This document shows positions 4,336-35,037 of a stretch of DNA of 64,000 nucleotides, piece by piece. Below the pieces are notes generated by a model. The model saw only the letters and a list, made by a program, of their open reading frames with translations, was not told where the DNA came from and did no database searches. Position 1 is the first letter of the stretch. Each line of letters begins with the position of its first letter. The stretch covers positions 3,810 through 67,809 of the forward strand of contig JBAYHK010000001.1 in NCBI GenBank assembly GCA_041666145.1, given 5' to 3'. Source of the stretch: Patescibacteria group bacterium (lineage in GTDB: Bacteria > Patescibacteriota > Patescibacteriia > UBA9934). The position numbers and the translations under genes are program-made.

Positions 4336-5551
4336 TTAGAAGCTCAAGAACTTCTAAAAGCGCAGAGAGAAACTTCTGTATTTCTTCTTCGGTAGAATAC
4401 GCCGCCAAACTCACTCGAATTGTTCCACCTTCTAGCGCAATCCTTTCAATCAATGGTTGAGCACAGTGATTTCCGGCACGAACACAAATACCGCGCTGAC
4501 CAAGAAGATCAGCAACGTCATGAGGATGAACGCCTTCGACGATGAAAGAAACAATGGCAATGGCATCGGCGGGATCGAAGACGGTGACACCAGGAATCGT
4601 TCGGAGACTGGTGACGAGAGACTGACGCAAGGAAGCTACCCCCTCCGACTCCGTTCCGCCACACATCTTTACCGCTTCAGCAAAACCAATTGCGCCTTCT
4701 ACATTCGGCGATCCACCTTCAAATCGAGCAGGAATCTCTCGCCAAGTTTCACGATCGATAGAAATGGAATCAACCATACCGCCGCCAACAATCATCGGTT
4801 CCATGATTGATGCGAGTCGATTCGATAATGCCATCGCTGCAATCCCAGAAGGTCCATAACACTTATGCGAACCAAACACGATTGCATCGGCGCCAAGTTC
4901 CTTCATCGAGATCGGAATGTGCGGTGCGGCTTGTGCGGCATCGACGATCACGAACGGAAAGGAAAGCTTGTCTACCCCCTCCGACTCCCCCTTGTTAAGG
5001 GGGAGAGTTCGCTGCGCTGCGTCGACAAGTGCTTTTACGGGGACGACAGTTCCAAGAACATTCGAAACAAGAGTCGTTGCAATAATCTTGGTTCGATGAT
5101 TCATCATCGAAATCGTTCCTTCGATATCGAGCATGAAGTCACTGCTCATCGGCATGGTTCGAAGAATCGCACCACGTTCTCGTGCAATGCGTCGCCATGG
5201 CAACAAATTCGCATGATGCTCAAAAGGACTCACCAGAATTTCGTCACCGGGATTGAGGATCGACTGAACGCCAAAAGCAATCGCATTAAGACCCTCCGTG
5301 ACGCTCTTCGTAAAAATCGTGGTTCTCAAATCTGCTTCAATAAATTCGGCAACAGTCTTTCGCGAGTTTTCGTACGCCACCATCGACACTTCAGCTAACG
5401 GATACAGTCCACGACCAATATTCGAACGTCCAGACCGAAGATATGCCGCCATTGCTTCAATCGACGCAGAACAAATCTGCGTGGTTGAAGCGTTGTCGAG
5501 ATAGGCAACGTCAGCATTAAGCGCAGGAAATTGCGAGCGAATATCATTCAT
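4331..5551 (-). CDS. sufS: Cysteine desulfurase SufS (class V aminotransferase)
   Basis: 406 aa; class V aminotransferase fold and PLP-lysine region SHKCYGPSG; start ATG at 5551 (MNDIRSQFP); contains in-frame GC-hairpin insert encoding LPLNKGESEGV. Confidence 0.85.
   Translation of the reverse strand: MNDIRSQFPALNADVAYLDNASTTQICSASIEAMAAYLRSGRSNIGRGLYPLAEVSMVAYENSRKTVAEFIEADLRTTIFTKSVTEGLNAIAFGVQSILNPGDEILVSPFEHHANLLPWRRIARERGAILRTMPMSSDFMLDIEGTISMMNHRTKIIATTLVSNVLGTVVPVKALVDAAQRTLPLNKGESEGVDKLSFPFVIVDAAQAAPHIPISMKELGADAIVFGSHKCYGPSGIAAMALSNRLASIMEPMIVGGGMVDSISIDRETWREIPARFEGGSPNVEGAIGFAEAVKMCGGTESEGVASLRQSLVTSLRTIPGVTVFDPADAIAIVSFIVEGVHPHDVADLLGQRGICVRAGNHCAQPLIERIALEGGTIRVSLAAYSTEEEIQKFLSALLEVLELLK
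4973..5010. repeat. GC-rich palindromic element family B1 (CTCCCCCTTGTTAAGGGGGAG core), in frame in sufS
   Basis: taccccctccgactcccccttgttaagggggagagttc; 7-bp perfect hairpin stem. Confidence 0.85.
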
Positions 5552-6233
5552 AGGTCCTATAGGTCTTATAGGTCTTATAGGACCTATGCGCTACAAGCCC
5601 CCAAATTGGACACAAGAATTGGTCAGCAACCATGCGTCGAGCGATCATGCTGTCAATGCCACGACACGCAAAATACGCAATGATTGCCTTAGAGGGCCGA
5701 GCAACCGCGACTCGATGTTTTGCACGAATAGCATTTGACGCAATATGGAGTTCAGGAATAACACGAATTCGTGACTTGTCTCCAAGAAGCATTCCTCGCA
5801 CTGATGTTTCAACAACACCATCAGCTACCAATGAATCAACAACAACACGCTGACGAATAATCGCATTCGATCGATCTTGCGTAACACATCGGTCGTCAAT
5901 GATGCACGTTGCGCCATCGGCAGAAATATGAACATCGTCATCACATCGAAACGTGACGTTCGGTGCAACTGTACAAGCAGTGAAAAGTTCAACTCGAGCA
6001 CCTGAACCAACAATCTCAACATTTCGAACTATCGAAATATCCGAAATGACTTCGCCAACAAGAACCATCGAGAGTATTGCTCCGGCCTCGACGCGGGCAG
6101 AGATTGAAACGCTTTGCGATATATCGACTTCCACTTTTCGTGAAGACCGTGCTGGAACGCTAATCACAATATCTGCCCCTGAACGAAGCGCTACCTCAGA
6201 CAACGGCTTTTCACGTTCATCAATCATATTCAA
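5544..6233 (-). CDS. sufD: Fe-S cluster assembly protein SufD (short form)
   Basis: 229 aa; beta-helix-like repetitive sequence; positioned between sufB and sufS; C-terminal tail YKTYKTYRTYE is encoded by repeat copy A4. Confidence 0.55.
   Translation of the reverse strand: MNMIDEREKPLSEVALRSGADIVISVPARSSRKVEVDISQSVSISARVEAGAILSMVLVGEVISDISIVRNVEIVGSGARVELFTACTVAPNVTFRCDDDVHISADGATCIIDDRCVTQDRSNAIIRQRVVVDSLVADGVVETSVRGMLLGDKSRIRVIPELHIASNAIRAKHRVAVARPSKAIIAYFACRGIDSMIARRMVADQFLCPIWGLVAHRSYKTYKTYRTYE
5550..5589. repeat. 9-bp symmetric tandem repeat, copy A4 (four to five units) forming the sufD C-terminus, immediately upstream of the sufS start
   Basis: ataggtcctataggtcttataggtcttataggacctatg. 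Confidence 0.85.
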
Positions 6234-7624
6234 GCAACAGCGCCAGTCATCTCAAGCGACACAAGTTCGAGAAACTCGACCGCATACTCAAACGGAAGCT
6301 CGCGAACAATTGGATCAAGAAATCCATTAATCACAGCACGACGTGCAGCGTCAGCATCAAGCCCCCTAGTCGATAGATACGCCAACTGCGCGTCATCAAC
6401 ACGACCGATAGTTGCCTCATGCGTTACGGTCATATCTGGTGCAGCATCGTCAATGATAGGAATCGTCACCGCACAAGACTCGGTGTCCATCATGAGCGTG
6501 TCACACACAACAGAAACGCTCGAATCTTTCGCTGCTGCTGTCGCCTTCACCAATCCTCGGTACGTGCTCACTCCCCCACCAACCGCAATACTCTTCGCCC
6601 TTATATTCGCCGACGTATTCGGCGCAACAAGCGCGACCTTATGCCCTGTGTCTTGTTTCTGCCCTGGCCCAGCAAACGCAACACCAAGATAATCGCTCTT
6701 CGAATCCTCTCCTCGAAGCACGCTCATCGGATAAAGCATTGTTACCCCGCTCCCCATATTCCCATTCACCCATGAAATTGATGCTCCTTCATCGACCAAA
6801 GCTCGCTTCGTATTAAGATTAAACGTATTCTTACTCCAATTTTCAATGCTCATGTATTTCACAGTTGCACCTTTCTTCACGTAAATCTCGACACATCCAG
6901 CATGAAGCGCTGCACTGTCATACTTTGGTGCCGAACAACCTTCAATATATTCAACAACACTTCCTTCATCGGCGATAATGAGTGTGTGTTCGAATTGTCC
7001 TCCACGTTCTGCATTCATTCGAAAATACGCCTGAAGCGGAATCGTCACCTTCACATTCTTCGGAACATAAATGAACGTTCCTCCGCTCCAAACTGCCGCA
7101 TGAAGCGCAGAAAAATAATGATCACAAACCGGCACGCAGCTTGTCATGAAATGCGCTCGAACCAGTTCTGGATATTCGCGAACTGCAACATCCATATTAA
7201 GAAAAATCACTCCCTGGTCCGCAAGATCGCGCTGAAGATTGTGATAAACAATCTCCGAATCATACTGCGCGCCAACACCAGCGAGTCCTGCGCGTTCAGC
7301 TTCTGGAATACCAAGCTTCTCGAATGTCTCTCGAATATCCGTTGGCACGTCATCCCATGTTCGATGCTCTACCGAATTCGGCTGAACAAAAAACGAAATC
7401 GAAGAGAGCTCAAGCGTGTCGAGCGACGGACCGAAACTTGGTCGCAGATGCGATGAAACAAAATCAAATCCTTCAAGACGCTTTTCTGTTACCCATTCTG
7501 GCTCTCCTTTCTTTTTCGCAATCGCAAAAATAGCTTTACGAGTAAAACCACTCGGCAAAACAAATCTCGGCGTATGTTTTCCAGGTGCATCAAGATGCGC
7601 ACGAAGGGCGTCCATAGGCCCCAA
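6230..7624 (-). CDS. sufB: Fe-S cluster assembly protein SufB
   Basis: 464 aa; strong SufB similarity across the C-terminal beta-helix (e.g. GASISWVNGNMGSG, VTHEATIGRVDDAQLAYL). Confidence 0.85.
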   Translation of the reverse strand: MGPMDALRAHLDAPGKHTPRFVLPSGFTRKAIFAIAKKKGEPEWVTEKRLEGFDFVSSHLRPSFGPSLDTLELSSISFFVQPNSVEHRTWDDVPTDIRETFEKLGIPEAERAGLAGVGAQYDSEIVYHNLQRDLADQGVIFLNMDVAVREYPELVRAHFMTSCVPVCDHYFSALHAAVWSGGTFIYVPKNVKVTIPLQAYFRMNAERGGQFEHTLIIADEGSVVEYIEGCSAPKYDSAALHAGCVEIYVKKGATVKYMSIENWSKNTFNLNTKRALVDEGASISWVNGNMGSGVTMLYPMSVLRGEDSKSDYLGVAFAGPGQKQDTGHKVALVAPNTSANIRAKSIAVGGGVSTYRGLVKATAAAKDSSVSVVCDTLMMDTESCAVTIPIIDDAAPDMTVTHEATIGRVDDAQLAYLSTRGLDADAARRAVINGFLDPIVRELPFEYAVEFLELVSLEMTGAVA

Positions 7625-7807
7625 TCCTAGTCTGAAAATCGAACAAAAACAACGGAAACAAAAAATCGACTACGCTGCGAAAATGAGGATTATTGTTCCA
7701 AAAAATAAAAAAAGAATTGCCAAAATAAGCCCAACTTCAAGCACGGTAACAAATGGAACCTTTTTTGATCGTGCTGATCGACGAACGGTCATATTATGCA
7801 AAGTATA

Positions 7808-8452
7808 TCATCCGTGCCAAAACGTTCTTCGGTGAATCGGCGACAGCCCAATGCGACGAATCGCTTGAACGTGAGCTTTTGTGCCATACCCTTTGTGCGA
7901 CGAAAAATTGTAGCCAGGAATCGTATCATCGAACGCTTCCATGAGCAGATCTCGATATTCTTTTGCCACAATCGATGCGGCAGCAATAGAGAATATCTTC
8001 GCATCACCATCGACGACGGTTTCTTGAGGCGTATCGAGATTTGGAATTCGCTGATTTCCATCAACAAAAACTACCCCCTCCGACTCCCCCTTGTTAAGGG
8101 GGAGAGATCTCACTGCAGCACTCATCGCCCGTAAAGTCGCTTGAAGAATATTAATCTCGTCGATCACCACAGCATCGACCTCAGCAATTCCAACAGCCAA
8201 TGCAACGTCCCGAATCGCTTTCGATGTTTCTTGACGCTGTTTTCGACTAAGCGTTTTGCTGTCACGAATTGGAAATCGCAGTGCAAGATTATAAATCGGC
8301 TCTGGATTGCTCCAGTCAAAAAGCACGGCCCCAGCAACAACTGGCCCAGCCAAACATCCTCGACCAACCTCGTCAACGCCAATTGGATGGCACAAACCAA
8401 CGCCCCATCGACGCAATTCCTCTTTACAATCAAGTGATCCGCGCTTTGTCAT
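7808..8452 (-). CDS. rnhB: Ribonuclease HII
   Basis: 214 aa; catalytic motif GVDEVGRGCLAGPVV; carries in-frame GC-hairpin insert encoding SLPLNKGESEGV. Confidence 0.8.
   Translation of the reverse strand: MTKRGSLDCKEELRRWGVGLCHPIGVDEVGRGCLAGPVVAGAVLFDWSNPEPIYNLALRFPIRDSKTLSRKQRQETSKAIRDVALAVGIAEVDAVVIDEINILQATLRAMSAAVRSLPLNKGESEGVVFVDGNQRIPNLDTPQETVVDGDAKIFSIAAASIVAKEYRDLLMEAFDDTIPGYNFSSHKGYGTKAHVQAIRRIGLSPIHRRTFWHG
8072..8106. repeat. GC-rich palindromic element family B1, in frame in rnhB
   Basis: taccccctccgactcccccttgttaagggggagagatc; near-identical to the sufS copy. Confidence 0.85.
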
Positions 8453-8549
8453 AACAGAATCGATTCACGATCAGGAGCAGTATACGTTGGAGATTCCGCT
8501 TTACACCAACGCAAAAATTCGGTATCCTCTCAACGTTCTAAAAGACCGT

Positions 8550-8622
8550 CGGGCCGTAGCGCAGTTGGTAGCGCGCCTGGTTTGGGACCAGGAGGTCGCA
8601 GGTTCGAACCCTGTCGGCCCGA
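8550..8622 (+). tRNA. tRNA-Pro (anticodon TGG)
   Basis: Cloverleaf: acceptor cgggccg/cggcccg, anticodon loop ctTGGga, T-loop ggttcgaac; CCA encoded 8623-8625. Confidence 0.85.
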
Positions 8623-8627
8623 CCAAA

Positions 8628-8660
8628 AACGAATCGCAATGCGGTTCGTTTTTGCATCCC
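8628..8660 (+). terminator. Intrinsic terminator after tRNA-Pro
   Basis: aaacgaatcgcaatgcggttcgttttt hairpin plus T-run. Confidence 0.5.
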
Positions 8661-8723
8661 AAACAAGAAGAAAAATCACGAATTATAATTCGTTGATCTG
8701 GCATAATTCATTACAAGTATTGC

Positions 8724-8753
8724 TTGACGCACAACGACATGATGTCATACAAT
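8724..8753 (+). promoter_or_regulatory. Sigma70-like promoter for the tRNA-Ile/tRNA-Phe pair
   Basis: TTGACG, ~18-nt spacer, TACAAT; ~25 nt upstream of tRNA-Ile. Confidence 0.45.
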
Positions 8754-8777
8754 ACCCCCGCTTTCACAAACTATTTC

Positions 8778-8851
<74 letters not shown>

Positions 8852-8855
8852 CCAG

Positions 8856-8927
8856 GCCGAGGTAGCTCAGTGGTAGAGCAGAGGTCTGAAGAACCTCGTG
8901 TCGACAGTTCGATTCTGTCTCTCGGCA
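8856..8927 (+). tRNA. tRNA-Phe (anticodon GAA)
   Basis: D-arm gctcagtggtagagc, anticodon stem gaggt/acctc with loop ctGAAga, T-arm gacagttcgattctgtc; CCA at 8928-8930. Confidence 0.8.
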
Positions 8928-8931
8928 CCAC

Positions 8932-8959
8932 AAAAAATCCGTCACATGACGGATTTTTT
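8932..8959. terminator. Bidirectional intrinsic terminator shared by the tRNA cluster (+) and 16S rRNA (-)
   Basis: aaaaaatccgtcacatgacggatttttt; perfect hairpin flanked by A-run and T-run. Confidence 0.65.
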
Positions 8960-9101
8960 GTTTTATTTCTGACTCGTCAACAAAAAAAGCGCCATTGCGG
9001 CGTTCTTTTTTTTATTTCCAGCGCATCAGTAATACACAACTATGTGATTACAACGTCCTACAGTTCTTGCGAACTGCATCGACCGATCAAAGTGTTACCT
9101 T

Positions 9102-10600
<1,499 letters not shown>

Positions 10601-10780
10601 ATAGTTCCCTCGTTGCTCTTGCGAGCTATGAGGGACTCTGTTTAGTGATCGTTCTTGCGAACGATATCGGTGGACGTTGTAATCACGCAATTGTTCATTA
10701 CGTGATGGGCTGGTTGTTGTTCTTCAGTTGTGAAGATACGACGTCCGCCAGGGCGAAAACCCTCAACGAATGTGGCGGTA

Positions 10781-13487: not shown

Positions 13488-14585
13488 CTACACTTTTCTT
13501 GCGCGAATAGCGAGGAACATTGGAATCTCTTTGCGAATGCGATTTTCGGCTCGCGCACGAGGACCAGAAGTGCTTTCTTTATGCGAAATCCATTCTTCCA
13601 TTTCGTCGACAAGGAAACCGGCTTTTGAAAGTGCGGAAACATAAGAAGAAAGCGGACGATGGAATGACATGGTTCGAACGTCTGGAGCGTCGCCAGGATG
13701 CATTTGCATTGGAATCGACTTTTCTTCTAAGTACGAGTCAATACGGCGATACATCATCTTTCTTGAATCTTCGAATCCCCAACTACTCTGACGCGGAACG
13801 CGAAATGCAGGATGGTTCAAAACGATAACGAATGGTGCGTTCTTTTTCAGTAGCTTCGATACTGTTGCGAACACTCCCTCCATGTTTTCAATATTCTGAA
13901 GTGCAAGAACAATCGCGGCACCGTCAAACGTCATGGACGCAATTTCTTTTGTGCCGCGCGATGCGTCTGAAACAAAGAATTCTGCGTTGCGAACATGTTT
14001 CATTTGCGCTTGGCGAACCAAGGTCGGCGAAGCATCGATACCGACCACTCCCCCGCCTTGCTTACTGATTAACTGCGCAAACGAACCTTCGCCACATGCC
14101 ACATCTAAAAACACTTTTCCCGCACCAACACCAAGGAGCTTCAACGCTCCAGGCCAAACCACTTCGCTCTGATACGTTCCTGGCGCGGAAAGATGGGTTC
14201 CATACCACTCCGCAACATTCTCCCAACTTGTTGAAGATGCCGAACCTCGTCGTGGCGAAGCGGCAGCTCGTGGACCGCTGGTGCGTTGATTGAACCTCCC
14301 CCTAGCCCCCTCCTTGGTAAGGAGGGGGGAATCACAACGCGAACCCTCCCCCTTAACAAGGGGGAGTCGGAGGGGGTCGAATCGCTCGTCTCTTCGACGA
14401 CCTTTCATAAATGGCGGCTTCACACTTGGACGCATCGGTCCGTCTGCATGCGAATCTGCTCGAGCATCTCTTGGAGCACGATCGATTCGTTCTGCGCCTT
14501 GCGATCGATTACCACGTTGCGTGCCATATGTTCCTTTGCCGCGGCGAGCGAATGCTGGACCGGGACGTGATTGTGAATGTTGCAT
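13488..14585 (-). CDS. Class I SAM-dependent methyltransferase with Arg-rich N-terminal region of uncertain reality
   Basis: Motif I VFLDVACGEGSFAQ; a composite B2+B1 palindromic element lies in frame near the N-terminus (PLRLPLVKGEGSRCDSPLLTKEGARG); true start uncertain. Confidence 0.6.
   Translation of the reverse strand: MQHSQSRPGPAFARRGKGTYGTQRGNRSQGAERIDRAPRDARADSHADGPMRPSVKPPFMKGRRRDERFDPLRLPLVKGEGSRCDSPLLTKEGARGRFNQRTSGPRAAASPRRGSASSTSWENVAEWYGTHLSAPGTYQSEVVWPGALKLLGVGAGKVFLDVACGEGSFAQLISKQGGGVVGIDASPTLVRQAQMKHVRNAEFFVSDASRGTKEIASMTFDGAAIVLALQNIENMEGVFATVSKLLKKNAPFVIVLNHPAFRVPRQSSWGFEDSRKMMYRRIDSYLEEKSIPMQMHPGDAPDVRTMSFHRPLSSYVSALSKAGFLVDEMEEWISHKESTSGPRARAENRIRKEIPMFLAIRARKV
14295..14380. 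repeat. Composite GC-rich palindromic element (family B2 plus inverted B1), in frame in the methyltransferase ORF
   Basis: cctccccctagccccctccttggtaaggagggggg-aatcacaacgcgaa-ccctcccccttaacaagggggagtcggagggggtcga. Confidence 0.85.
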
Positions 14586-14799: not shown

Positions 14800-17121
14800 T
14801 TATCTCCTCGCAGTTCCGTCGCCAACGTAATCTTCCAACTTCACGCTGAGCATTTTGCTTATACCGTCGTCACCCATAGTTACGCCGTACAGCATGTCTG
14901 CCTTTTCCATGGTGGCACGGTTGTGAGTAATGACAATGAACTGCGTTAATTTCCGAAGTTCATTCAAAATGTTTGCGAACCGTACAGTATTTGCTTCATC
15001 TAGGGCAGCGTCAACTTCGTCTAGCACCACAAATGGCGCAGGATTCGTGGCCATAATGGCAGAAACAAGAGCAATTGACGTTAAAGCGCGCTCGCCGCCA
15101 GACAAAAGATTCAGCGCCTTGAGTCGTTTTCCAGGAGGCGTTGCCTGAATGTCGATGCCGACAATGGCGTCTTTTCGCTCCAGCACCCGCCTTGTAATCG
15201 CCTCGAGCGTATCGACGTCGTCGTGATGAACAAGCTCGTCGAGTACCAATGGATCCCCGCCTACGCGGGGATGACTGGACGCATCCAAAGACCCATCTTC
15301 AAGCTCCTCTTTTGTGAGTTTCACCAACGAACACCGTCCGCCACCAAACAAAATTGCAAAATACTTTTGAAACTCAGTCGCGATCGCTTTAAAAGCAACG
15401 TCTGACTGTTCACGAATCTGAACATCGAGTTCGTCAATGACTTTCTCGGTCGAAGCAATGGCATCGCGAAGATCTGCAACCTGCGTCGACAAAAACGTAA
15501 ATCGCTCATCAGCTTCTTTATATTCGGCAACGACTGTTTCTTCAATCCCACCAATAAGCTCAAGCTGATGTCGCAAGCGAAGCATCTTGTCATGCAAAAC
15601 GACCTCCCCCAGCCCCTCCTTGGTAAGGAAGGGGGTCTCGCTTGGTCGATCCGCGACAATCGACGCAACAAGCTCCGGCACCGCATCTTCCATTTCTTTC
15701 TTCAATCCCTCAATCCGCGTTTCGCATCGCGCAATCTCGATGGCAACCGCATTCGACTGCGCCTCAAGTCCAGATAATTCTTGTTGCAATCTTCGTACCT
15801 CTCGCTGTACACCAAAAACTTCGTTCGTAGCAGTTACCGTCGCCTTTGACTTCTCATCGATAGCAACTTCTACAGCCTTCACACCAGCTTCACACGCATG
15901 AACGCCTTCGAGCGCCACAGAAATTGCATTCACCATTTCTGCACTCGGCGCAAAGTCATCCGGATTCGGCCGCGTCAATCGCTCACGCAACTTTTTCGAT
16001 CGCGTTGATATCGACTCAAGATCGGAAATGATCGGCACAAGATCGGCAAGATCAGAAACAGCTTTCAATCGAAGCAATAACGACTCGTGCGCCGCAGAAA
16101 CATCTCGAACCTCGGCGATAATGTCTGGAAGCGGCAATGGTGCCCACGTTGTTTGCGACGCGACTTTTGCAAGCTCTAAATCTCGCTCCGCCGCAAAATG
16201 AACACGCCGAGCGTCAGCCAAATCTTGTTGCGCCTTTTTATACGCCATCTGCAAACCGCTCATCGAACCATCGTCATTCACGTTCGGCATTTGCGCAGCC
16301 TCAATAGCCGCAAGCCTTGCATCTCCAGTCGCCAATTCCGCTTTCTTCGCCGCAACACGTTCCATCGCAATCTTCGATCTCCCATCAACCAGATTCTTCT
16401 CATCAATCAAGTTCCACCACTGCACACCGAAATACTGCGCCGACACTTCTTTCAATTCCGCAGCAACAACTTCTCTGTCATTCAACCGCTTCACTTGCCG
16501 CTTAAGCATGTTCAAACGCGGCTCAAGTTCACGCAGCACCATTTCCACGTCTGCCAAATTCTCCGCAGACTTCTGCAGCTTCAACAGCGCCTGATGTCGC
16601 TTAATCTGGAAGCCCCTTACTCCAGTCGCGTCGTCGAAAAAGACTTTCCTGTCTTCTGGCGACGCAGTAAGAACATGGTCAATCATGCCTTGGCCAATCA
16701 CCGAATACGATCGTTGCCCAACACCAGCTTCTGCCAACAACAACTGAATATCTGCCAATCGCACCACCGATCCATTTAACAAATATTCCGACTCGCCATC
16801 ACGATAAAGTCGACGAGTCACCACGACTTCAGAAAATGAAACGTTCAATGTATGGTCGGAGTTATCAAAAGTCAGGCTCACCTCAGCAAAACCTGCACGA
16901 CTCCTGCCCTCTGCACCCGAAAAAATCACGTCTTGCGCTGCCTTTCCTCGAAGCAGCTTCATGGACTGCTCCCCTAAACACCACCGAATTCCGTCTGCAA
17001 TGTTCGACTTTCCACTCCCATTTGGCCCAACAATCACCGTCACAGCATGGTCTCCCTTTTTTGGCGCCGCAAACAAAAGCGTTGTTTTTTGAGCAAACGT
17101 TTTAAACCCCTGAAGCTCCAT
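14800..17121 (-). CDS. smc: Chromosome segregation protein SMC (unusually short, ~774 aa)
   Basis: N-terminal Walker A VGPNGSGKSNIADGIRWCLGEQS; C-terminal signature LSGGERALTSIALVSAIM...VLDEVDAALD; start set at MELQGFK; two different in-frame palindromic inserts (family C: HPRVGGDP; family B2: ETPFLTKEGLGEV). Confidence 0.8.
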   Translation of the reverse strand: MELQGFKTFAQKTTLLFAAPKKGDHAVTVIVGPNGSGKSNIADGIRWCLGEQSMKLLRGKAAQDVIFSGAEGRSRAGFAEVSLTFDNSDHTLNVSFSEVVVTRRLYRDGESEYLLNGSVVRLADIQLLLAEAGVGQRSYSVIGQGMIDHVLTASPEDRKVFFDDATGVRGFQIKRHQALLKLQKSAENLADVEMVLRELEPRLNMLKRQVKRLNDREVVAAELKEVSAQYFGVQWWNLIDEKNLVDGRSKIAMERVAAKKAELATGDARLAAIEAAQMPNVNDDGSMSGLQMAYKKAQQDLADARRVHFAAERDLELAKVASQTTWAPLPLPDIIAEVRDVSAAHESLLLRLKAVSDLADLVPIISDLESISTRSKKLRERLTRPNPDDFAPSAEMVNAISVALEGVHACEAGVKAVEVAIDEKSKATVTATNEVFGVQREVRRLQQELSGLEAQSNAVAIEIARCETRIEGLKKEMEDAVPELVASIVADRPSETPFLTKEGLGEVVLHDKMLRLRHQLELIGGIEETVVAEYKEADERFTFLSTQVADLRDAIASTEKVIDELDVQIREQSDVAFKAIATEFQKYFAILFGGGRCSLVKLTKEELEDGSLDASSHPRVGGDPLVLDELVHHDDVDTLEAITRRVLERKDAIVGIDIQATPPGKRLKALNLLSGGERALTSIALVSAIMATNPAPFVVLDEVDAALDEANTVRFANILNELRKLTQFIVITHNRATMEKADMLYGVTMGDDGISKMLSVKLEDYVGDGTARR
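15250..15275. repeat. Palindromic element family C, in frame in smc
   Basis: tggatccccgcctacgcggggatgac. Confidence 0.8.
15603..15637. repeat. GC-rich palindromic element family B2 (CCCCTCCTTGGTAAGGAGGGG core), in frame in smc
   Basis: cctcccccagcccctccttggtaaggaagggggtc. Confidence 0.85.
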
Positions 17122-17204
17122 GCGGGAGAGATACATATGCCGGCAGTGTAAATGAAGTCTCCCCTCTTTACTAGACAATCTGGCTTATCTCTGCTATTTT
17201 TCCT

Positions 17205-25495: not shown

Positions 25496-25567
25496 GCGGG
25501 TATCGTATAGCGGTTATTATCTCAGTTTTCCAAACTGATGATAGGGGTTCGACTCCCCTTACCCGCT
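25496..25567 (+). tRNA. tRNA-Gly (anticodon TCC)
   Basis: Acceptor gcgggta/tacccgc, anticodon stem tcagt/actga with loop ttTCCaa, T-arm aggggttcgactcccct; CCA at 25568-25570. Confidence 0.75.
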
Positions 25568-25818: not shown

Positions 25819-25821
25819 GAG

Positions 25822-28362: not shown

Positions 28363-28746
28363 TCACGACGCCGATGTTCGTGTCTGCCTGTGCAGACTGG
28401 TGAAAATTCTGTAAAAGACTGCGCCTGACAGCATGATCGGCACAGCAATGAGCGCCGTCATAACGCCCTCAATGACGCTGTCACTCGTTAGCACCGAGAA
28501 AGCGCCGGAGACCATAACGCCAATCATCGAAATCCGATTGACTGTCATGAGCCTCTTTGCCTTTGGCGACTGATGAGGATAATTGAGCCGAATACAGTGA
28601 CACACAGCACTCCAGAAAATGAGGTTGTAGATTGCTGCGAAGGCTATGCAAGCGAGCGCGGCGTAGAGCGGAGCCGGGAGAAGAAAGGGGACCACGCAAG
28701 ACCTCGGTGTCGAACAGTACGTCGAAGGCGGCTGCCAACAACACAA
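28363..28746 (-). CDS. Hypothetical membrane protein
   Basis: 127 aa with 3-4 hydrophobic helices. Confidence 0.4.
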   Translation of the reverse strand: MCCWQPPSTYCSTPRSCVVPFLLPAPLYAALACIAFAAIYNLIFWSAVCHCIRLNYPHQSPKAKRLMTVNRISMIGVMVSGAFSVLTSDSVIEGVMTALIAVPIMLSGAVFYRIFTSLHRQTRTSAS

Positions 28747-28856
28747 TAACCTAACAAAAAAAATCGACTCCTGTCAAAGAAATCGGCTTTACAAAACAAG
28801 CATTTTCGCATATCCTTTTCAGTCGCCTTCCACTAACCACTACACCTGGAGACACC

Positions 28857-29390
28857 ATGCGACGTTTGCTCCTTTCACTCATTTTCAGCATCACACTTTC
28901 CGCGTGCAGCAAAAACTGCAGCGATGGAATCGCAGAAACACCGATCGCATCGTCGAATCCTGGCGACTACGAAGTGGCGCTCTGCGTCCAGGGAAAAGCC
29001 CTTCCTGAAGAAGCGACCGCATATATCGTGACAACCGGAGAATCGCCTGCGGCGGATCGTCGAGATCTCCTTCGTCTGAAGGAAGTCTCCAGGCTCGAGA
29101 ACACCATCTGCGCGCTCATTCCTTCGCACGCTCTCGAAGAATCGTTGAGCGAATCCGTGAGAATCGGAATCGCGTTCCCAGACCCTTCGGCATCCGTGCT
29201 CAAGGGAGAGTCAATCTCCTTGCTGCTCCGAGACGAAAAAGGCAATGTTAGAGGTAAAGAGATCGGAACAGTGAATCAGCTCGCCATGTCCATCTCGTCG
29301 AGTGTGTCACTCGTGCCAATGAGAGAAGAGATGGTTCCTATCTACCGTCGTCCAGAAGGCTCATCGGCAATCATCGAGTCCAGCAAGTGA
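28857..29390 (+). CDS. Hypothetical lipoprotein
   Basis: Signal peptide with lipobox ITLSAC. Confidence 0.5.
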   Translation: MRRLLLSLIFSITLSACSKNCSDGIAETPIASSNPGDYEVALCVQGKALPEEATAYIVTTGESPAADRRDLLRLKEVSRLENTICALIPSHALEESLSESVRIGIAFPDPSASVLKGESISLLLRDEKGNVRGKEIGTVNQLAMSISSSVSLVPMREEMVPIYRRPEGSSAIIESSK

Positions 29391-29566
29391 AATCACGCTC
29401 TGTGCGCATCCTGAATCTACGGGGTGCGCACGCTTTCTTTTTACAAGACTTGGACAACGAAACTCACCAAGATTGTAATTTCTTAAGAAATTTGCTATAC
29501 TATTTTGTTACTTTTCCCGAGAAACTACACAATCACCAGCGCAGCGCATGCGCAAATGGAGGTACC

Positions 29567-30196
29567 GTGCGAATTCCCGAAGACGCCGTCCCAGACGGCA
29601 ACACGCTCATCGCAGTTTTCGCCATGATGCGACATGGAGACAGAGAAAAAGAAGAACCGGGCAAAACGACAGAAAAAGGGCGACGACAGGTAGAGGCAAG
29701 TGCGAGACAACATTTGATCGACCAACGGTTCAATGGTGTGTTCTCCAGCACGCTGCTAAGAGCCAAAGAGACCGCAGAGATCACTCTTGCCGCAATCAAC
29801 CACCCAGACATCGCCGTCGAAACCCCTCCGGCGTTCGATCTCTCCCAGCTCTCCCAAAACCCGGCGTTCGGAGACTCTGTCAAAAGACTCTTCGGAACGA
29901 TAAAGAAAGGAGCAACGATGGCCGACTGGGTCAACGGACTGGACGAGAATCTGAGTCCGCTCCGCGCCTGTCTCCGCAACGGAATGTTCGAGATCGCGAT
30001 GGAATACGAAGACATCGGAACACCACCAACGTTCCTCGTGGGCTACCACGGCCCATTCGCCGGCTGGGCGGCGGACAACTCAGAAAACATACGCTACATC
30101 GGCCATGCTGATGTAGTGCTCTATGTTCTCAGCCAGGATCGAGCCGGCAACGTTTATTTCCACGGTTCGCTGTGGAAATGCCCGCCGGTTGAATGA
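29567..30196 (+). CDS. Histidine phosphatase family protein (PGM/SixA-like)
   Basis: RHG motif (AMMRHGDRE) and downstream SSTLLRAKETAEI; GTG start set at 29567 with SD ggagg upstream; the longer 29387 start is less likely. Confidence 0.55.
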   Translation: MRIPEDAVPDGNTLIAVFAMMRHGDREKEEPGKTTEKGRRQVEASARQHLIDQRFNGVFSSTLLRAKETAEITLAAINHPDIAVETPPAFDLSQLSQNPAFGDSVKRLFGTIKKGATMADWVNGLDENLSPLRACLRNGMFEIAMEYEDIGTPPTFLVGYHGPFAGWAADNSENIRYIGHADVVLYVLSQDRAGNVYFHGSLWKCPPVE

Positions 30197-30251
30197 CGAC
30201 ATCCTCCAAAACTCACGAACGCCCCGTACTTCTGTGTGGGGCGTTTAACGT

Positions 30252-31364
30252 TCACATTATTCGCAAAACCCCTTCTTCCCCATCAACCTCAACAACTATC
30301 CCGTCCGTAATCTTTTCAAAAATATCTTTCACATTTGTTAAACACGGCTTACCCAATTCTCGGCACACAATCGCTGCATGACTCAGAATACCACCGTATC
30401 GGGTGACTACTCCCCCGGCCTTTTGCATGAGCGGAAGAAAATCAGGAGTTGTTATGTCCGTAATGAGAATATCGCCGACATCGATTTCTGCACTCGCAAG
30501 TTCGGCAGCACGGATAACGCGAGCCTTTCCTGATGCGATTCCAGAAGAGCCGATTTGGCCGTGAAGAGTTTTGCGATCGACCTCCCCCGACCCCTCCTTG
30601 GTAAGGAGGGGGGATCGCAGCTGACTATACGCATCGCCGAGCAAACGATTCCAGTCAACGATCCAAAATCCAAACTCTTTCGATGAAATAGATTCAAAAT
30701 ACCCACATAAATATTCACCAAAGAATTTTGCATCAAATCTTTTAACAATCTCATCACGAATTGATTTCTCCTTCACGTGCAAAAGTTCGAACACATCAAA
30801 AAGATGCTCTGCGGCAACATGATTCTTTGGGTGAACTTCAACCGATTTTCCATCCCAAGAAAACGTCATTGGCTCTATTCCTTCATTGTAAAATCCTTGC
30901 GTAAGCTGAGTGTGCGTTCCTGCAACAATCTGCCCAAGCGCGCCGTGCTCATTCACAACAAAAATCGTTGACCATTCTTGATTCGCCGCATGCGGCACAA
31001 AGTCAGCTTTGTAATTCGATGGATCGATATTTTGCAGCGCAAACCAGTCCAACGAATCTCGGATCGAAGCACCGCGGGTTCGCAATTTCGGCAACGATGC
31101 GTCAAAAGGAATCAAACGCAATGCACAAAGTTCATCGCCACGCTCGTCCACGAAAGCAACGAATCGATCACTTCGATCTGTAACTTCGCTTGCGGGAAAT
31201 TGCGTAGGTCGATCAAAAGGCAAACCAAAAAGATCGTTCAGCACGGCAAGGCGCTCGCGCTTTTCATTATCTTCTTTGCGATGCGCTTCTGAATCTTTGT
31301 GCCCCATGCGCTGAAACCATTCTGTGAGCGAAATCTGCGTTTGATAAAGCTTCGAGAGATCCAT
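30252..31364 (-). CDS. PEP-utilising enzyme family protein (unknown N-domain plus phosphohistidine mobile domain)
   Basis: C-terminal mobile-domain motif GGVVTRYGGILSHAAIVCRELGKPC; in-frame B2 insert SPLLTKEGSGEV. Confidence 0.6.
   Translation of the reverse strand: MDLSKLYQTQISLTEWFQRMGHKDSEAHRKEDNEKRERLAVLNDLFGLPFDRPTQFPASEVTDRSDRFVAFVDERGDELCALRLIPFDASLPKLRTRGASIRDSLDWFALQNIDPSNYKADFVPHAANQEWSTIFVVNEHGALGQIVAGTHTQLTQGFYNEGIEPMTFSWDGKSVEVHPKNHVAAEHLFDVFELLHVKEKSIRDEIVKRFDAKFFGEYLCGYFESISSKEFGFWIVDWNRLLGDAYSQLRSPLLTKEGSGEVDRKTLHGQIGSSGIASGKARVIRAAELASAEIDVGDILITDITTPDFLPLMQKAGGVVTRYGGILSHAAIVCRELGKPCLTNVKDIFEKITDGIVVEVDGEEGVLRIM
30581..30614. repeat. GC-rich palindromic element family B2, in frame in the PEP-utilising enzyme gene
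   Basis: cctcccccgacccctccttggtaaggagggggga. Confidence 0.85.
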
Positions 31365-31366
31365 AA

Positions 31367-32593
31367 TTATCTGTGTTTCAAAATCGAAATCTCACCGGTA
31401 TCACAATTCATTTCTATTTCATCACCGTCATGAAGCATTTTTGTAGCGACTTTTGTGCCAATAATGCAAGGCTTTTTCATCTCTCGCGCAATAATTGCAG
31501 CATGACACGTAATCCCGCCTTCATTCGTGATAATCGCAAGAACATCTTTCATACACGGAATGAAATTTGCGGTTGTCTGGATTGCGACAAGAATTTTTTG
31601 ATCAAACAGATTCCTCTTTTCCTCAAACTCATTCTTATCTCGAGCAACAATCACCCGACCACGCAACGTTCCTACTCCAAACGCAGTTCGACCAATCAAT
31701 TTTTCATCTGGGTGCACGATTCCTTGCTCTTTTTCGTAAAGCCTTAAAAGGAAATTGCTCAAATCCTCCGTTTCTTCCAACTCATCGATGAGCACAAGAT
31801 CGCGCCCCTGAACATCAATAAAAATGTATCCGTATTTTTCCCGATGTGTAATACGCGCAACGGCGTCAATTGCCTCAAGATCGCGGATCCAAGAAAGAAT
31901 TTCGGTTACCGAAAGATGATTTATCGCTCGAATCGCGTCACAATCAATACATCTCTTTACAAAAAGAGACTGAAGAAAAATTCGAATAGCATTCTCCATG
32001 TCTTCTTCAAGTGAAGCTTTATTGCGCCATGCGTCATGTTCGCGAATAATCTCTTCACTGTCATGCAATTCGTGTTGGTATTTTGTGAGCTGAAGACCAA
32101 GAGACAGCGTGATAATAAAAGAAGCGCTTGATTGTTGGTGAAGTTTCATGAGCGTCTCAAAATCCTGAATACTTGCAGAGTTATTTTCTTCATGGACATG
32201 CTTTTCTAGCTCATGGATACAGTCATTAATCTCTTTCCATGTTCGAAGATCTTTTTTTATCCAATCTAAAAGAATTTCAGGACGATCAAAAATGTATTTC
32301 TTTGATTGTGCGTGGAATGCATCGATGTGCTCTGCATGAAAAACTCTTGTTGGCTTATTCTGCAAAGGAAGAAAAATCGTGTCTGCAAAATCCATCCCAA
32401 ACCAAGTGCGAAGATGTGTGCGAAAACCAATCTGCCGGCTCGACATGAAAAGAAGCGGCGAGTCTCCTCGCGTACGAAAAAACCACGATTGATCCTTAAT
32501 GTATGAAACAAGCTCTTTTTTCAACATACCATTTAGAGGGTTGTAATCGGTCGACTCTGAAGAATGAAGAGCTTGCCATTTTCGATTGCCCAT
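31367..32593 (-). CDS. PEP-utilising enzyme family protein, central region plus mobile domain (probably the C-terminal part of a gene split from 32533..33396)
   Basis: Mobile-domain motif EGGITCHAAIIAREMKKPCIIG; overlaps the upstream ORF by 61 nt in a different frame. Confidence 0.55.
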   Translation of the reverse strand: MGNRKWQALHSSESTDYNPLNGMLKKELVSYIKDQSWFFRTRGDSPLLFMSSRQIGFRTHLRTWFGMDFADTIFLPLQNKPTRVFHAEHIDAFHAQSKKYIFDRPEILLDWIKKDLRTWKEINDCIHELEKHVHEENNSASIQDFETLMKLHQQSSASFIITLSLGLQLTKYQHELHDSEEIIREHDAWRNKASLEEDMENAIRIFLQSLFVKRCIDCDAIRAINHLSVTEILSWIRDLEAIDAVARITHREKYGYIFIDVQGRDLVLIDELEETEDLSNFLLRLYEKEQGIVHPDEKLIGRTAFGVGTLRGRVIVARDKNEFEEKRNLFDQKILVAIQTTANFIPCMKDVLAIITNEGGITCHAAIIAREMKKPCIIGTKVATKMLHDGDEIEMNCDTGEISILKHR

Positions 32594-33396
32594 TCAATGT
32601 CACACGGAAAACCGTAATGATTCTCGATTGTCACACAAGTCGATGCTAATGCACGGACCTGATCGTCTGAAAGCTTTCGCTGCGAACGATCGGCACTGGG
32701 GACTGGAACGAGAACACACTGGATCCCCGCCTGCGCGGGGATGACGGAATTGCGAATTAACATCTCTTCTTGATCATTCTGATAGACATCAAGAATCGCC
32801 AAATCTGATTTTCGAACCGTATACGAATCTGGAGTCACTTCGCCGCCAACAATGAGTTCGCCAAGTCCCCAGCACGCCTCAATAATCATCGAGTCTGGAT
32901 CTTTAGTGACAGGATGAACGGTGAACGTAATTCCGGAAACATCAGATTGAATCATTTTTTGTACAACGACTGCGACAGAAATCTTTGTACTGCGAAGATG
33001 ATGTTCGTTTCTATATGCAATTGCACGCTCTGACCACAATGACCGCCAACACTTTTCAATATTCTCGAGAAGGTTCTCCCTTGTTGTATTCAAATACGTT
33101 TCGAGTTCACCTGCCCAGCTTGCCGACACTCCATCTTCCACCGTTGCACTCGAACGAACAGCAACAAAATCGCAATCAAGATTATCGAATGCGGAGAGAA
33201 TTTCAGCCTGAAGTAATGAGTCAAATTGGTCGGATTGGACGTATAAGTCGAATGCGGCGGCGGTGACAACGAATCCTGGCGGGACTGGAATTCCCGCGTT
33301 CGTCATCTCGCCAAGTGATGCGCCCTTGCCTCCGGCAGTTGCGGCGTCGCTCTTTGAGAGAGTAAAAATGGGTTTCGTGTAAGACATAGAAGACAT
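32533..33396 (-). CDS. PEP/pyruvate-binding (PPDK_N-type ATP-grasp) domain protein
   Basis: GGKGASLGEM...GIPVPPGF and terminal LQSRPIT motifs; in-frame family C insert VIPAQAGIQ. Confidence 0.6.
   Translation of the reverse strand: MSSMSYTKPIFTLSKSDAATAGGKGASLGEMTNAGIPVPPGFVVTAAAFDLYVQSDQFDSLLQAEILSAFDNLDCDFVAVRSSATVEDGVSASWAGELETYLNTTRENLLENIEKCWRSLWSERAIAYRNEHHLRSTKISVAVVVQKMIQSDVSGITFTVHPVTKDPDSMIIEACWGLGELIVGGEVTPDSYTVRKSDLAILDVYQNDQEEMLIRNSVIPAQAGIQCVLVPVPSADRSQRKLSDDQVRALASTCVTIENHYGFPCDIEWAIENGKLFILQSRPITTL
32720..32745. repeat. Palindromic element family C, in frame in the PPDK_N-domain gene
   Basis: tggatccccgcctgcgcggggatgac. Confidence 0.8.
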
Positions 33397-33463
33397 GTGT
33401 CGGATCCCTCACATGCGTTCGGGATGGTGAATCAACTGTGAATACCAGGGACGATATGACGCG

Positions 33464-33490
33464 AAACTTAGTTAGTAGCTAACTTAGTTT
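33464..33490. repeat. 27-bp palindrome family E, copy E3
   Basis: aaacttagttagtagctaacttagttt. Confidence 0.75.
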
Positions 33491-33495
33491 CTTTT

Positions 33496-35037
33496 TCACA
33501 TCCATCGCTTCTCCTGATTAATCCATTCAAGAATCTCTTCATTCGACTTCCCTTCATCATCGCGTAACCTATCTGCTTCGCGAATAAGCTCCCCCATCTT
33601 TACGCCAGGTTCAATGCCAAGTGCAACAAGCTCCTCTCCAGTAATCGCATGTTGCGCAGGACCAGTGAGCACGTCAAGCTTCGATGCTCGGTCGAGTAAC
33701 CATGATCGCTCCGGAAACTCACGTGCTTCTCCATGACGCCATCCAACTTTACGATTTGAAACATCGGAGCTTGACTGAACAAACTGACCGCGACCGAAGT
33801 AATCCGCTTCTGCTAAAAGAAGGAGTTCTGAAATTGTCGCTGGAGATATCGACGCAGCAAGTCGACGAATCGCACCGTCGGTAATAATCAGACCGGGTTT
33901 TTGGCTATCAAGGTAGAGCACGGTTGGCGCCATGTGATGCTTCACCATGCCAACAATCTTTTCAACCATGGGATGCGCAACACCAATGCGCGCCAAGAAC
34001 GAACGTGCTGGCGCCTCACCGGCCGGCTCGTGACCAATCGCACGAATTTTTCCATCAATCTCTTCAGTAACAATCGACTTTCCAAAGTCATGGCACAACG
34101 CCACAAGCATCATCATGAACGCAGTTTCTTCGTCACAATTCTCCCGACGAATAATCGCCGCCTCTTCGTCAACAACCATAAGCGTATGAATCCATACGTC
34201 ACCCTCTGGATGCCACTCTGGATTCTGCGGTGTTAACTTTAGCGGCGGCAATTCTGGAAACATCGCATCAAAAACTCCCAAATCGAATCCCAATTGCAGT
34301 CCTATCGACGGCTTTTCCGCAAGAACCAAAAGCTTTCGCCACTCATCTCGTAATCTCTCTTGCGACAGCTCACGCAAACTCGAAACCGACCTTCGCATCA
34401 CATCCATGGATTCCACATCTGGCGTCAAATCAAATCTCGCAACAAATTGCATGGCCCGAAGCACACGAAGCGGATCGTCCCCGAAAAGTTTTGCATCCAC
34501 TACCCGCAAAATCTTCTGTTCAAGATCGACAGCGCCATGAAATGGATCGATAACTTCTTCAGTCAACGGATCCATCATGATGGCGTTCACTGTGAAATCC
34601 CTTCGGCGCGCAGCGTTTTCTGGCGTCATGGTCGGGTCGACATGCACCGCAAAACCTTTGTGCCCTGCATCGACTTTCGAATCTGAACGCGGAATGCCAA
34701 GATCGATCACAAGACCTCCCCCTAACCCCCTCCTTGATAAGGAGGGGGAATTCTCATCCGAACGCGAACCCTCCCCCTTAACAAGGGGGAGTTGGAGGGG
34801 GTCGACTCGCAACTTCAAAATCCCAAATGCCTTACCCGCATCAATAACCTCGCCGAATGTCGATGCGATCTCATGGAGCTTCTCCGGCTCAACTCCATAC
34901 ACTTCAATGTCAAAATCCTTCGGAACACTATCGCTCAACACATCACGAACGCATCCCCCGACCAATAAAGCTCGACCGCCAGCAGACTGGATCGACCGCG
35001 CAAGTTCGAGAATGATGTTTGGAAGAGAATATTTCAT
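33496..35037 (-). CDS. cca: CCA tRNA nucleotidyltransferase / polyA polymerase family protein with HD domain
   Basis: Pol-beta NTase motif LLVGGCVRDVLSDSVPKDFDIEV; HD-region LCHDFGK; a composite B2+B1 element inserted in frame (PLQLPLVKGEGSRSDENSPSLSRRGLGGG). Confidence 0.75.
   Translation of the reverse strand: MKYSLPNIILELARSIQSAGGRALLVGGCVRDVLSDSVPKDFDIEVYGVEPEKLHEIASTFGEVIDAGKAFGILKLRVDPLQLPLVKGEGSRSDENSPSLSRRGLGGGLVIDLGIPRSDSKVDAGHKGFAVHVDPTMTPENAARRRDFTVNAIMMDPLTEEVIDPFHGAVDLEQKILRVVDAKLFGDDPLRVLRAMQFVARFDLTPDVESMDVMRRSVSSLRELSQERLRDEWRKLLVLAEKPSIGLQLGFDLGVFDAMFPELPPLKLTPQNPEWHPEGDVWIHTLMVVDEEAAIIRRENCDEETAFMMMLVALCHDFGKSIVTEEIDGKIRAIGHEPAGEAPARSFLARIGVAHPMVEKIVGMVKHHMAPTVLYLDSQKPGLIITDGAIRRLAASISPATISELLLLAEADYFGRGQFVQSSSDVSNRKVGWRHGEAREFPERSWLLDRASKLDVLTGPAQHAITGEELVALGIEPGVKMGELIREADRLRDDEGKSNEEILEWINQEKRWM
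34715..34806. repeat. Composite GC-rich palindromic element (B2 plus inverted B1), in frame in cca
   Basis: cctccccctaaccccctccttgataaggaggggg-aattctcatccgaacgcgaa-ccctcccccttaacaagggggagttggagggggtcga; same architecture as 14295-14380. Confidence 0.85.

Follow-up and report, generated by a model that had tools for sequence, protein, structure and literature searches.

Short repeats with intrastrand triplex-motif architecture reside in frame within conserved genes of a Patescibacteria genome

Introduction

What are the short G/C-rich hairpins that lie inside conserved enzyme genes of a bacterium with a reduced genome, and how did they come to reside there in frame? This question is raised by a stretch of 64,000 nt (64 kb) from one Patescibacteria genome (contig JBAYHK010000001.1), referred to as the window, in which the units described here were searched. 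An initial annotation of this DNA had recognized two related units, B1 and B2 (type 1 and type 2 in the following), and had likened them to the A/T-rich Rickettsia palindromic elements (RPEs). The eight elements of the window are probably copies of a structure-defined repeat, the intrastrand triplex motif, which is represented by the BoxC/PIT/TMECO elements of Escherichia coli and by G/C-rich motifs of cyanobacteria. They would be selfish or neutral and would propagate via a folded single strand. A class II motif of this kind is defined by a pyrimidine arm, a loop of 1-6 nt, a purine arm, a second loop of 1-6 nt and a third arm antiparallel to the purine arm; stems have 6-15 nt with at most one mismatch, and the triads are G.G-C, A.A-T and T.A-T (PMC4666352). 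This description by Holder et al. 2015 builds on the PIT elements of Hoyne & Maher 2000 and on the older BoxC repeat (PMC4666352).

Results

Eight units at six loci within conserved genes

The window was searched for the cores of both unit types. The type-1 core CCCCCTTGTTAAGGGGGAG was found at four sites, compared to 0.01 expected from shuffled sequence, and the type-2 core CCCCTCCTTGGTAAGGAGGGG also at four sites (two of them with one mismatch), compared to 0.00. The eight G/C-rich units at six loci that the initial annotation had placed within open reading frames (ORFs) were thereby verified at their coordinates. A structure-based finder returned exactly these eight units with refined ends (Table 1). 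With an nhmmer profile made from the eight units no further copy, intact or degenerate, was detected in the 64 kb, and a scan of the window for perfect C-rich hairpins yielded only these units and one unrelated 6-bp hairpin at 62195. Since ENA and JGI data sets provide independent assemblies of the source genome, the units are not an assembly artefact.

The six host ORFs all lie on the minus strand, and each has a strong match in Pfam, namely Aminotran_5 (SufS-like), RNase_HII, SAM methyltransferase, SMC_N, PEP-utilizers and PolyA_pol (CCA-adding enzyme). The peptides thus land in conserved enzymes, as had been proposed for SufS, RNase HII, SMC and the CCA-adding enzyme. Every unit is free of stop codons in the reading frame of its host. 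The type-2 units of the methyltransferase, SMC and PEP-utilising genes are read as PLLTKEGxGE and the two antisense type-1 units as DPL(R/Q)LPLVKGEG. Six of the eight units have their G-rich strand in sense orientation. The other two, which are antisense, form the type-1 halves of composites, in which two units are paired. As ~88% of the window is ORF, the chance that six of six loci lie in coding sequence is ~0.46. The units therefore do not avoid genes, but a preference for genes is not demonstrated in the window.

A third segment covaries with the hairpin stem

A degenerate-hairpin scan with one genome per bacterial species returned at least 120 loci. They belong to Cyanobacteria (mostly Microcoleus), Thiomargarita/Thioploca, Acidobacteriota, Patescibacteria, Chlamydiota, Planctomycetota, Poribacteria, Nitrospinota, Chloroflexota and others. 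Alignment of the flanks revealed a constant order on the G-rich strand: a 9-nt C-rich arm, a 3-nt loop, a 9-nt G-rich arm, usually 3 nt, and then a mirror copy of the G-rich arm. The initial annotation had included this last segment in B1 or B2 but had not recognized it as a mirror repeat. Between the two hairpin arms lies TTANCAA, of which TT and AA lengthen the stem to 9 bp and leave a loop of 3 nt. The mirror segment carries A or T opposite each A-T pair and ends in T. Type 1 reads CTCCCCCTT-ANC-AAGGGGGAG-NNN-GAGGGGGT and type 2 CCCCTCCTT-ANC-AAGGAGGGG-NNN-GGGG(A/T)GGT. In a third unit type the arms consist of C or of G throughout. A purine-motif intramolecular triplex, in which the third strand runs antiparallel to the purine arm and forms G.G-C, A.A-T and T.A-T triads, requires a mirror repeat of this kind, with A or T facing the A-T pairs.

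To capture this architecture irrespective of sequence, a generic class II finder was used (stems of 9 nt with 8 or more Watson-Crick pairs and 8 or more canonical triads). Related loci totalling 1.21 Mb yielded 304 units, and shuffled sequence yielded none. All eight window units belong to this class, with 8-9 of 9 Watson-Crick pairs, 8-9 of 9 triads and loops of 3-5 and 3 nt. Among 204 pattern-matched units, 149 had 8-9 of 9 triads downstream, compared to 5 in the upstream control, and the position of the A/T tracked the stem type in 89 of 89 and 28 of 30 cases. Further support is provided by 174 perfect 9-bp pyrimidine/purine hairpins outside the search pattern, 74 of which had 8-9 of 9 triads downstream and only 2 upstream. 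This test is not circular, because the hairpins were picked without regard to any third arm. They span more than 20 distinct stem sequences, and every stem is matched by a mirror third arm of its own, for instance AAGGGGAGG with GG(A/T)GGGGT, AAAGGGGGG with GGGGGGATT and GGGAGAGGG with GGGTGAGGG. This covariation of third strand and stem across many phyla is evidence, at the level of sequence, that the predicted triplex-forming potential is conserved.

Other reasons for a third segment were considered. A slipped alternative hairpin needs a direct and not a mirror copy of the arm and leaves the T in place of A unexplained, and a G-quadruplex fails because types 1 and 2 lack four G-runs of at least 3. 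As T in place of A is compatible only with the purine-motif triad rule, both were dismissed as general explanations. A pyrimidine-motif triplex on the C strand is less likely, since CCACCCC variants would set an A opposite an A-T pair.

Several variants of the architecture were noticed. In 24 'two-sided' units (e.g. L031:621-665, L042:2750-2795, L050:3528-3572) a single hairpin has a mirror third arm on both sides, and a triplex could form from either DNA strand. At the loci L003, L015 and L044 (Chlamydiota, Terriglobia and Acidobacteriota) an extra small G/C hairpin stands in place of the 3-nt loop between hairpin and third arm, e.g. ACCACCCC-gcccttcgggc-a-CCCCTCC. It looks like a structured loop insertion, which fits a folded element. 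One type-2 hairpin with the third arm GGGGCGGT comes from a record titled 'MAG: Rickettsia typhi' (L085, CAMDRL010000018.1), whose taxonomic label looks doubtful.

Singles and composites are copied at the DNA level

The type-1 copies in sufS and rnhB have 36 identical bases in common, including two flanking bases per side, which indicates that singles are also copied. Because these copies are base-identical and the reversed DNA gives a different peptide, the units are a DNA-level repeat and not a protein motif. Both composites of the window consist of a type-2 unit and an inverted type-1 unit with inward-facing hairpins, and their spacers have the motif GGTTCGCGT in common. The composites in cca of L191 and in L136, both from Hainich groundwater Patescibacteria, have another common spacer, GGACTCAGGCTCAG. 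As spacers are common within a sample, the pair of type-2 and type-1 units with its spacer is itself copied as a unit. Two forms are thus copied, the single of 33-36 nt and the inverted type-2 + type-1 pair with spacer of 84-90 nt. Across phyla singles are the commonest form, each with its own defined ends.

The view that singles are halves of a palindrome of ~85 bp did not hold, since each single is a complete three-segment unit and the composite folds as two hairpins. For a single unit as single-stranded DNA, ViennaRNA predicted the 9-bp hairpin only. The predicted fold of a single-stranded composite has two separate hairpins and a 6-bp closing stem made from the outer third arms. Where neighbouring units were less than 150 nt apart (all loci), the arrangement was inverted with hairpins inward in 42 cases, a single hairpin with a third arm on each side in 24, inverted with third arms inward in 23 and direct in 12.

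Tandem copies were also observed. In Thiomargarita (L026:5890-7320) whole units form head-to-tail arrays with a 41-bp period, and in Microcoleus (L094:6264-6380) three tandem hairpins with a 36-bp period lie within a ProRS ORF. A CRISPR was ruled out, since no spacers separate the tandem copies and the units occur dispersed.

Units are lineage-specific insertions in loops, turns and linkers

Host proteins were aligned with their orthologues and compared with structures, as the initial annotation had suggested. The comparison identified the units as lineage-specific insertions, which distant orthologues lack and close ones often lack as well. In nearly all of 120 orthologues of the CCA-adding enzyme the site is a tight turn, ILKLRV-GD-LEIDLG. 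It is empty in the closest relative L123 (87% protein and 88% DNA identity), where the window has 84 extra bases, and singles or composites occupy the turn in scattered relatives at 62-74% identity. L191 has a composite of an antisense type-1 and a sense type-2 unit in cca, as in the window, and L192 a single type-2 unit. On a neighbour-joining tree with the insert masked, the ancestral state of the turn was empty, and at least 14 state changes were required among 51 sequences. Presence of a unit at a given site hence varies among relatives. In an AlphaFold model the composite comprises residues 79-108 and extends the beta-hairpin turn between strands 73-78 and 109-114, with a predicted local distance difference test score (pLDDT) below 50 at residues 87-106.

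A similar picture emerged for the other hosts. In RNase HII, many close relatives have a short loop between a long helix and the VxVDGN strand, and in others this loop contains units of various types and frames. An 88%-identical relative (L124) has a decaying type-1 copy with mismatches in rnhB. The insert of the window protein was modelled by AlphaFold as a coil (116-126) between helix 94-115 and strand 127-131. The SufS segment is missing from nearly all orthologues and from homologues in the PDB, among them the Bacillus subtilis SufS structure 5j8q. In SMC, the orthologue of L191 is 6 aa shorter at the unit site and has no recognizable unit. In the PEP-utilising gene, L123 has a decayed type-1 unit of equal length at the same nucleotide position as the type-2 unit of the window, and neither L191 nor L192 has a unit. 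The surviving copies sit in loops, turns or linkers, and the initially proposed location of the peptides in surface loops agrees with the RNase HII coil, the extended cca turn and the comparison with 5j8q. Typing of units by peptide alone proved unreliable, as PPYQGG results from a type-2 unit when the third frame is used; recurrence was therefore counted as a different type or frame at the same site. The repeated use of codon positions and the switch of type in the PEP-utilising gene suggest either very few permissive sites, or targeting or conversion.

The methyltransferase site is cleanly empty in L191, which reads RRRDDRF-AGRPKF where the window has RRRDERF-[composite]-ARGRF. A position upstream of the true start codon was ruled out for this composite. 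The Arg/Gly-rich N-terminal extension of ~110 residues (window 14256-14585, residues 1-110) is conserved as protein in relatives, and the composite accordingly lies within coding sequence.

At the nucleotide level (window 14294-14378 compared to L191:15555-16583) the empty allele is GCGGGTCGTCCGAAG, and the window carries 84 nt ending in GCTAGGGGGAGG. The partial likeness of the junction ends could be microhomology or chance. Most methyltransferase homologues are without the extension and start near residue 110-118 or bear other N-terminal domains. The PEP-utilising gene region is a cluster of PPDK_N and PEP-utiliser paralogues. In L123 (4242-6002) the PEP-utilising-domain protein has a SAM methyltransferase domain fused to its C-terminus and comprises 586 aa, compared to 370 aa in the window.

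Tolerance of units in coding sequence varies by lineage

That frames are preserved had appeared remarkable in the initial annotation. It is not so in view of the unit itself: the modal length of 33 nt (176 of 304 units) is a multiple of three, 71% of the reading frames are open when every frame of every unit is counted, and four to five of the six frames of a unit have no stop codon. The encoded peptide has 11-12 residues and is rich in Pro, Leu, Gly, Lys, Glu and Ser. The share of units within stop-free stretches of at least 150 codons was compared with random positions of the same loci. In the window, 7 of 7 units were in such long ORFs (random 0.77); only pattern-matching units were counted, and the mismatched smc copy, which is also in frame, was not. 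The share was 11 of 13 in Patescibacteria genomes (random 0.83), 34 of 39 in Cyanobacteria (0.71) and 31 of 49 at metagenome loci with a TCG linker (0.81). For Thiomargarita/Thioploca it was 1 of 20 (0.75) and for other phyla 32 of 77 (0.83). Tolerance of coding sequence therefore varies by lineage.

Other Patescibacteria and cyanobacteria also have in-frame units, in SecA, PolA, LeuRS, LigA, DnaX and several tRNA synthetases. Patescibacteria-type contigs have them in LeuRS, SecA, PolA, Mur ligase, a GT4 glycosyltransferase, an IleRS-type synthetase and MgsA, and Microcoleus and relatives in LigA, DnaX, AIR synthase, CysRS, GlyS, SbcC, ProRS and ChlD. Compared to E. coli LigA, the Microcoleus protein has ~44 extra residues with two units between domain Ia and the adenylation domain. 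A Microcoleus DnaX (clamp-loader tau/gamma) ORF, L063:3-2909, has an intein splicing domain in addition to a triplex-motif unit. The metagenome scan for units comprised 44 loci, the source contig not being among them. The hairpin core also occurs in twenty stretches of viral contigs from IMG/VR (L171-L190). Should they prove to be full units of genuine phages, phages would be possible vehicles of spread between phyla.

Other features of the window

GC skew was negative in every 4-kb block of the window (-0.01 to -0.19). Long ORFs are mostly found on the minus strand, and the window as a whole probably belongs to a single replichore whose genes run in the direction of replication. Besides the RNA genes given in Table 1, no 23S rRNA gene was detected in the window.

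Table 1. Repeat units, composite spacers and RNA genes of the window
Feature	Position	Strand	Host gene and orientation of the unit	Details
Type-1 (B1) unit	4973..5005	-	SufS-like gene 4331-5551 (-); G-rich strand = sense	CTCCCCCTT-AAC-AAGGGGGAG-TCG-GAGGGGGTA; 9/9 Watson-Crick pairs, 9/9 triads; peptide LPLNKGESEGV
Type-1 unit	8072..8104	-	RNase HII (rnhB) gene 7808-8452 (-)	33 nt identical to sufS copy, frame also identical; peptide LPLNKGESEGV
Three tRNA genes	8550-8927	+		adjoin the 16S rRNA gene
16S rRNA gene	9104-10602	-		full length
Type-2 (B2) unit	14294..14328	-	SAM methyltransferase gene 13488-14585 (-), Arg-rich N-terminal extension; sense	downstream half of composite 1 (gene orientation)
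Composite 1 spacer	14329..14345	.		17 nt; contains GGTTCGCGT (gene strand), common to composite 2
Type-1 unit	14346..14378	+	antisense to methyltransferase gene	upstream half of composite 1; read DPLRLPLVKGE; 9/9 Watson-Crick pairs, 8/9 triads
Type-2 unit	15601..15633	-	SMC gene 14800-17178 (-); sense	one stem mismatch (8/9, 8/9); peptide PFLTKEGLGEV
Fourth tRNA gene	25496-25567	+
Type-2 unit	30579..30611	-	PEP-utilising-domain protein gene 30252-31364 (-); sense	variable linker ahead of mobile domain
Type-2 unit	34714..34748	-	CCA-adding enzyme gene 33496-35037 (-); sense	downstream half of composite 2; different frame, peptide SPSLSRRGLGGG
Composite 2 spacer	34749..34770	.		22 nt
Type-1 unit	34771..34803	+	antisense to cca	upstream half of composite 2; read DPLQLPLVKGE

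Discussion

The eight units are best understood as intrastrand triplex-motif repeats that are copied as DNA, are gained and lost repeatedly among related lineages and decay when old. A single-stranded unit would fold into the hairpin, with the third segment lying antiparallel on the purine arm via G.G-C, A.A-T and T.A-T triads, and the copying process would need this folded strand of hairpin and third strand. The agent could be an enzyme that acts in trans; alternatively, stalled forks could undergo template switching induced by the structure, or repair, a process discussed for deletions by Holder et al. (PMC4666352). Units enter genes in either orientation, and in this Patescibacteria lineage they persist there, with open frames and with the surviving copies in loops, turns or linkers. 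Gain or loss has recurred many times at the same few permissive sites of related lineages, and old copies have decayed through point mutations. The elements would be selfish or neutral passengers and not adaptations of the host proteins.

Several points weigh against this interpretation. Neither a mobilising enzyme nor a target-site duplication or a conserved target was detected, so we infer the copying step. An oligonucleotide of TMECO formed a stable triplex by circular dichroism and nuclear magnetic resonance, which was undetectable in duplex DNA or in vivo (PMC4666352). The reuse of exactly the same codon positions exceeds the expectation of simple random insertion followed by a filter, and targeting or conversion between copies may be needed. 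Seven of the eight window copies are perfect, and the structure could be maintained by selection for host function. Finally, the census of units comprises 64 kb of this genome and samples from elsewhere.

A more far-reaching version is possible but rather unlikely. In this version triplex-motif units form a pan-bacterial class of mobile DNA with fold-dependent propagation, which re-enter or exchange in a homing-like manner at the same codons (cca turn, RNase HII loop, PEP linker) in independent lineages. If true, such a class would be a general source from which the proteomes of Patescibacteria and filamentous cyanobacteria acquire loop insertions.

Movement in the manner of repetitive extragenic palindromic (REP) sequences and REPINs appears improbable. 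Here single-stranded DNA would be moved by a HUH transposase (Y1, RAYT or IS200/IS605-type) that reads the hairpin and guide bases and inserts and excises without footprint. Hairpin units of 30-40 nt, inverted doublets copied as units and the lack of target duplication all fit this proposal. Empty sites of exact ancestral length among filled ones fit seamless excision, and in four of four window singles the G strand is on the expected lagging-strand template. However, over the 74 single units of all loci there was no orientation bias relative to local GC skew (36 vs 38), and none is seen in E. coli either (PMC4666352). In the profiles of the flanks of 130 single units no GTAG or CGTC tag was present at the unit ends, and only a weak preference for C/T was visible at -2 and -1. 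No RAYT or other Y1 HUH transposase was detected among the called genes of the 64-kb window and its fetched flanks or of L191 and L192, of which part of each genome was available. Holder et al. found no link of TMECO to transposons, phages or plasmids (PMC4666352).

A miniature inverted-repeat transposable element (MITE) in the style of RPEs is very improbable. It would be a non-autonomous palindromic transposon of ~85 bp with terminal inverted repeats, mobilized by a transposase encoded elsewhere, and singles would be its broken halves. The in-frame, loop-located insertions in conserved genes would agree with such an element, as would the match of the composites of both loci in architecture and spacer and the 6-bp pairing of their outer segments. 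Yet the singles, the commonest form in all phyla, are complete and perfectly conserved. Direct repeats at the flanks of the 130 single units were at chance level and no target consensus was visible, and no insertion sequence was found in the window and no transposase there or in its fetched flanks. The units differ from RPEs in size, base composition and sequence. The mirror third segment has no role in a model of terminal inverted repeats, although its covariation is strict.

A host-beneficial signal, either a DNA or RNA structure (a pause of replication or recombination, or an mRNA hairpin slowing ribosomes at domain boundaries) or a peptide under selection, would account for the perfect copies, the location at domain boundaries or linkers, the recurrence of sites in many lineages and the triplex rule conserved across phyla, but is highly unlikely given that the closest relatives lack units at the same sites, that copies decay in relatives, that three frames and both orientations yield unrelated peptides, that units are depleted from ORFs compared to random positions in Thiomargarita and most other phyla, and that no promoter, terminator or regulatory activity was found in E. 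coli (PMC4666352).

Triplex-motif repeats as the preferred explanation have several implications. In the more than 25 years since BoxC/PIT/triplex motifs became known, neither a function nor a mechanism of spread has come to light, and evolutionary evidence is now added. Frequent in-frame colonisation of genes appears to extend beyond Rickettsia, by a much smaller and different element in a reduced Patescibacteria genome. The units inflate and distort alignments of marker proteins that are used in the phylogeny of uncultured bacteria. In addition, they mark permissive insertion sites in essential enzymes and are candidate strain-level markers.

Among known repeats, the cyanobacterial small dispersed repeats (SDRs) which Elhai et al. 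reportedly described in 2008, and MITEs such as Nezha, are said to be very short, mobile and abundant in filamentous cyanobacteria. The SDRs are reportedly limited to Nostocaceae, and the likeness of these repeats to the units is one of description. No Rfam family matched the window units or five repeat-rich loci. A literature search by sequence and peptide string returned no paper with the B1 or B2 sequences or their peptides, and a search for palindromic elements of Patescibacteria or cyanobacteria was likewise unproductive. REP/BIME/REPIN sequences are likewise short G/C-rich hairpins that occur as singlets and as inverted doublets copied as a unit, without target duplication (PMC3116915, PMC3733652). 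Unlike the units described here, REPs have a GTAG or CGTC tag, are extragenic, and reside in genomes that encode RAYT (PMC3116915, PMC3733652).

RPEs have ~100-150 bp and are restricted to Rickettsia according to Ogata et al. 2000, as summarized in a 2024 review of prokaryotic MITEs (PMC10969869). The review regards the in-frame insertion of RPEs as unusually frequent and only speculates on a similar process in other prokaryotes (PMC10969869). The likeness seen by the initial annotation stands with respect to the effect on proteins: both elements insert in frame into unrelated conserved genes and encode peptides compatible with the fold, some insertions being shared and others lineage-specific. 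It does not extend to the class of element, as the mirror third segment places the units with BoxC/PIT/triplex motifs. RPEs have no such segment and no sequence similarity to the units. An RPE is a long palindromic stem encoding 30-50 residues, whereas the window units have 33-35 nt and the composites, at 84-90 nt, fold as two hairpins.

The closest relatives are thus the BoxC/PIT/TMECO elements. The E. coli TMECO consensus is 5'-CCCTCNCCC N3-6 GGGNGAGGG N3 GGGNGAGGG, and 3610 copies are known from 262 proteobacterial genomes (PMC4666352). The units share with them the 9-nt C arm, a loop of 3-6 nt, the 9-nt G arm, a loop of 3 nt and a second G arm with T or A opposite A, in 33-37 nt altogether. 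Both occur as many near-identical copies per genome, have two subtypes that pair inverted and no linked transposase, and are patchy among close relatives, locally unstable and abundant in cyanobacteria. TMECO is associated with small deletions and local variability from strain to strain, and triplex motifs rich in G/C are very abundant in Microcystis, Anabaena and Nostoc (PMC4666352). In E. coli five close inverted pairs were reported, each of a type A and a type B element (PMC4666352); both window composites are likewise heterotypic. E. coli has both inverted geometries, whereas the window composites have only that with hairpins inward. The window stems CTCCCCCTT/AAGGGGGAG and CCCCTCCTT/AAGGAGGGG differ from CCCTC(T/G)CCC in E. 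coli, and TMECO-like stems (GGGAGAGGG with GGGTGAGGG) are present at some other loci. In MG1655 TMECO is always intergenic, and genic copies of triplex motifs are not mentioned by Holder et al. 2015 (PMC4666352). In contrast, all eight window units lie inside Pfam-supported ORFs and are read through, in the reduced genome of a Patescibacteria host. The triplex-motif architecture is therefore already known from E. coli, where it is intergenic. What appears to be new, as judged from sequence, is the frequent in-frame residence in essential genes of Patescibacteria and Microcoleus-type cyanobacteria, together with the recurrence at particular loops and the cross-phylum covariation that supports a triplex.

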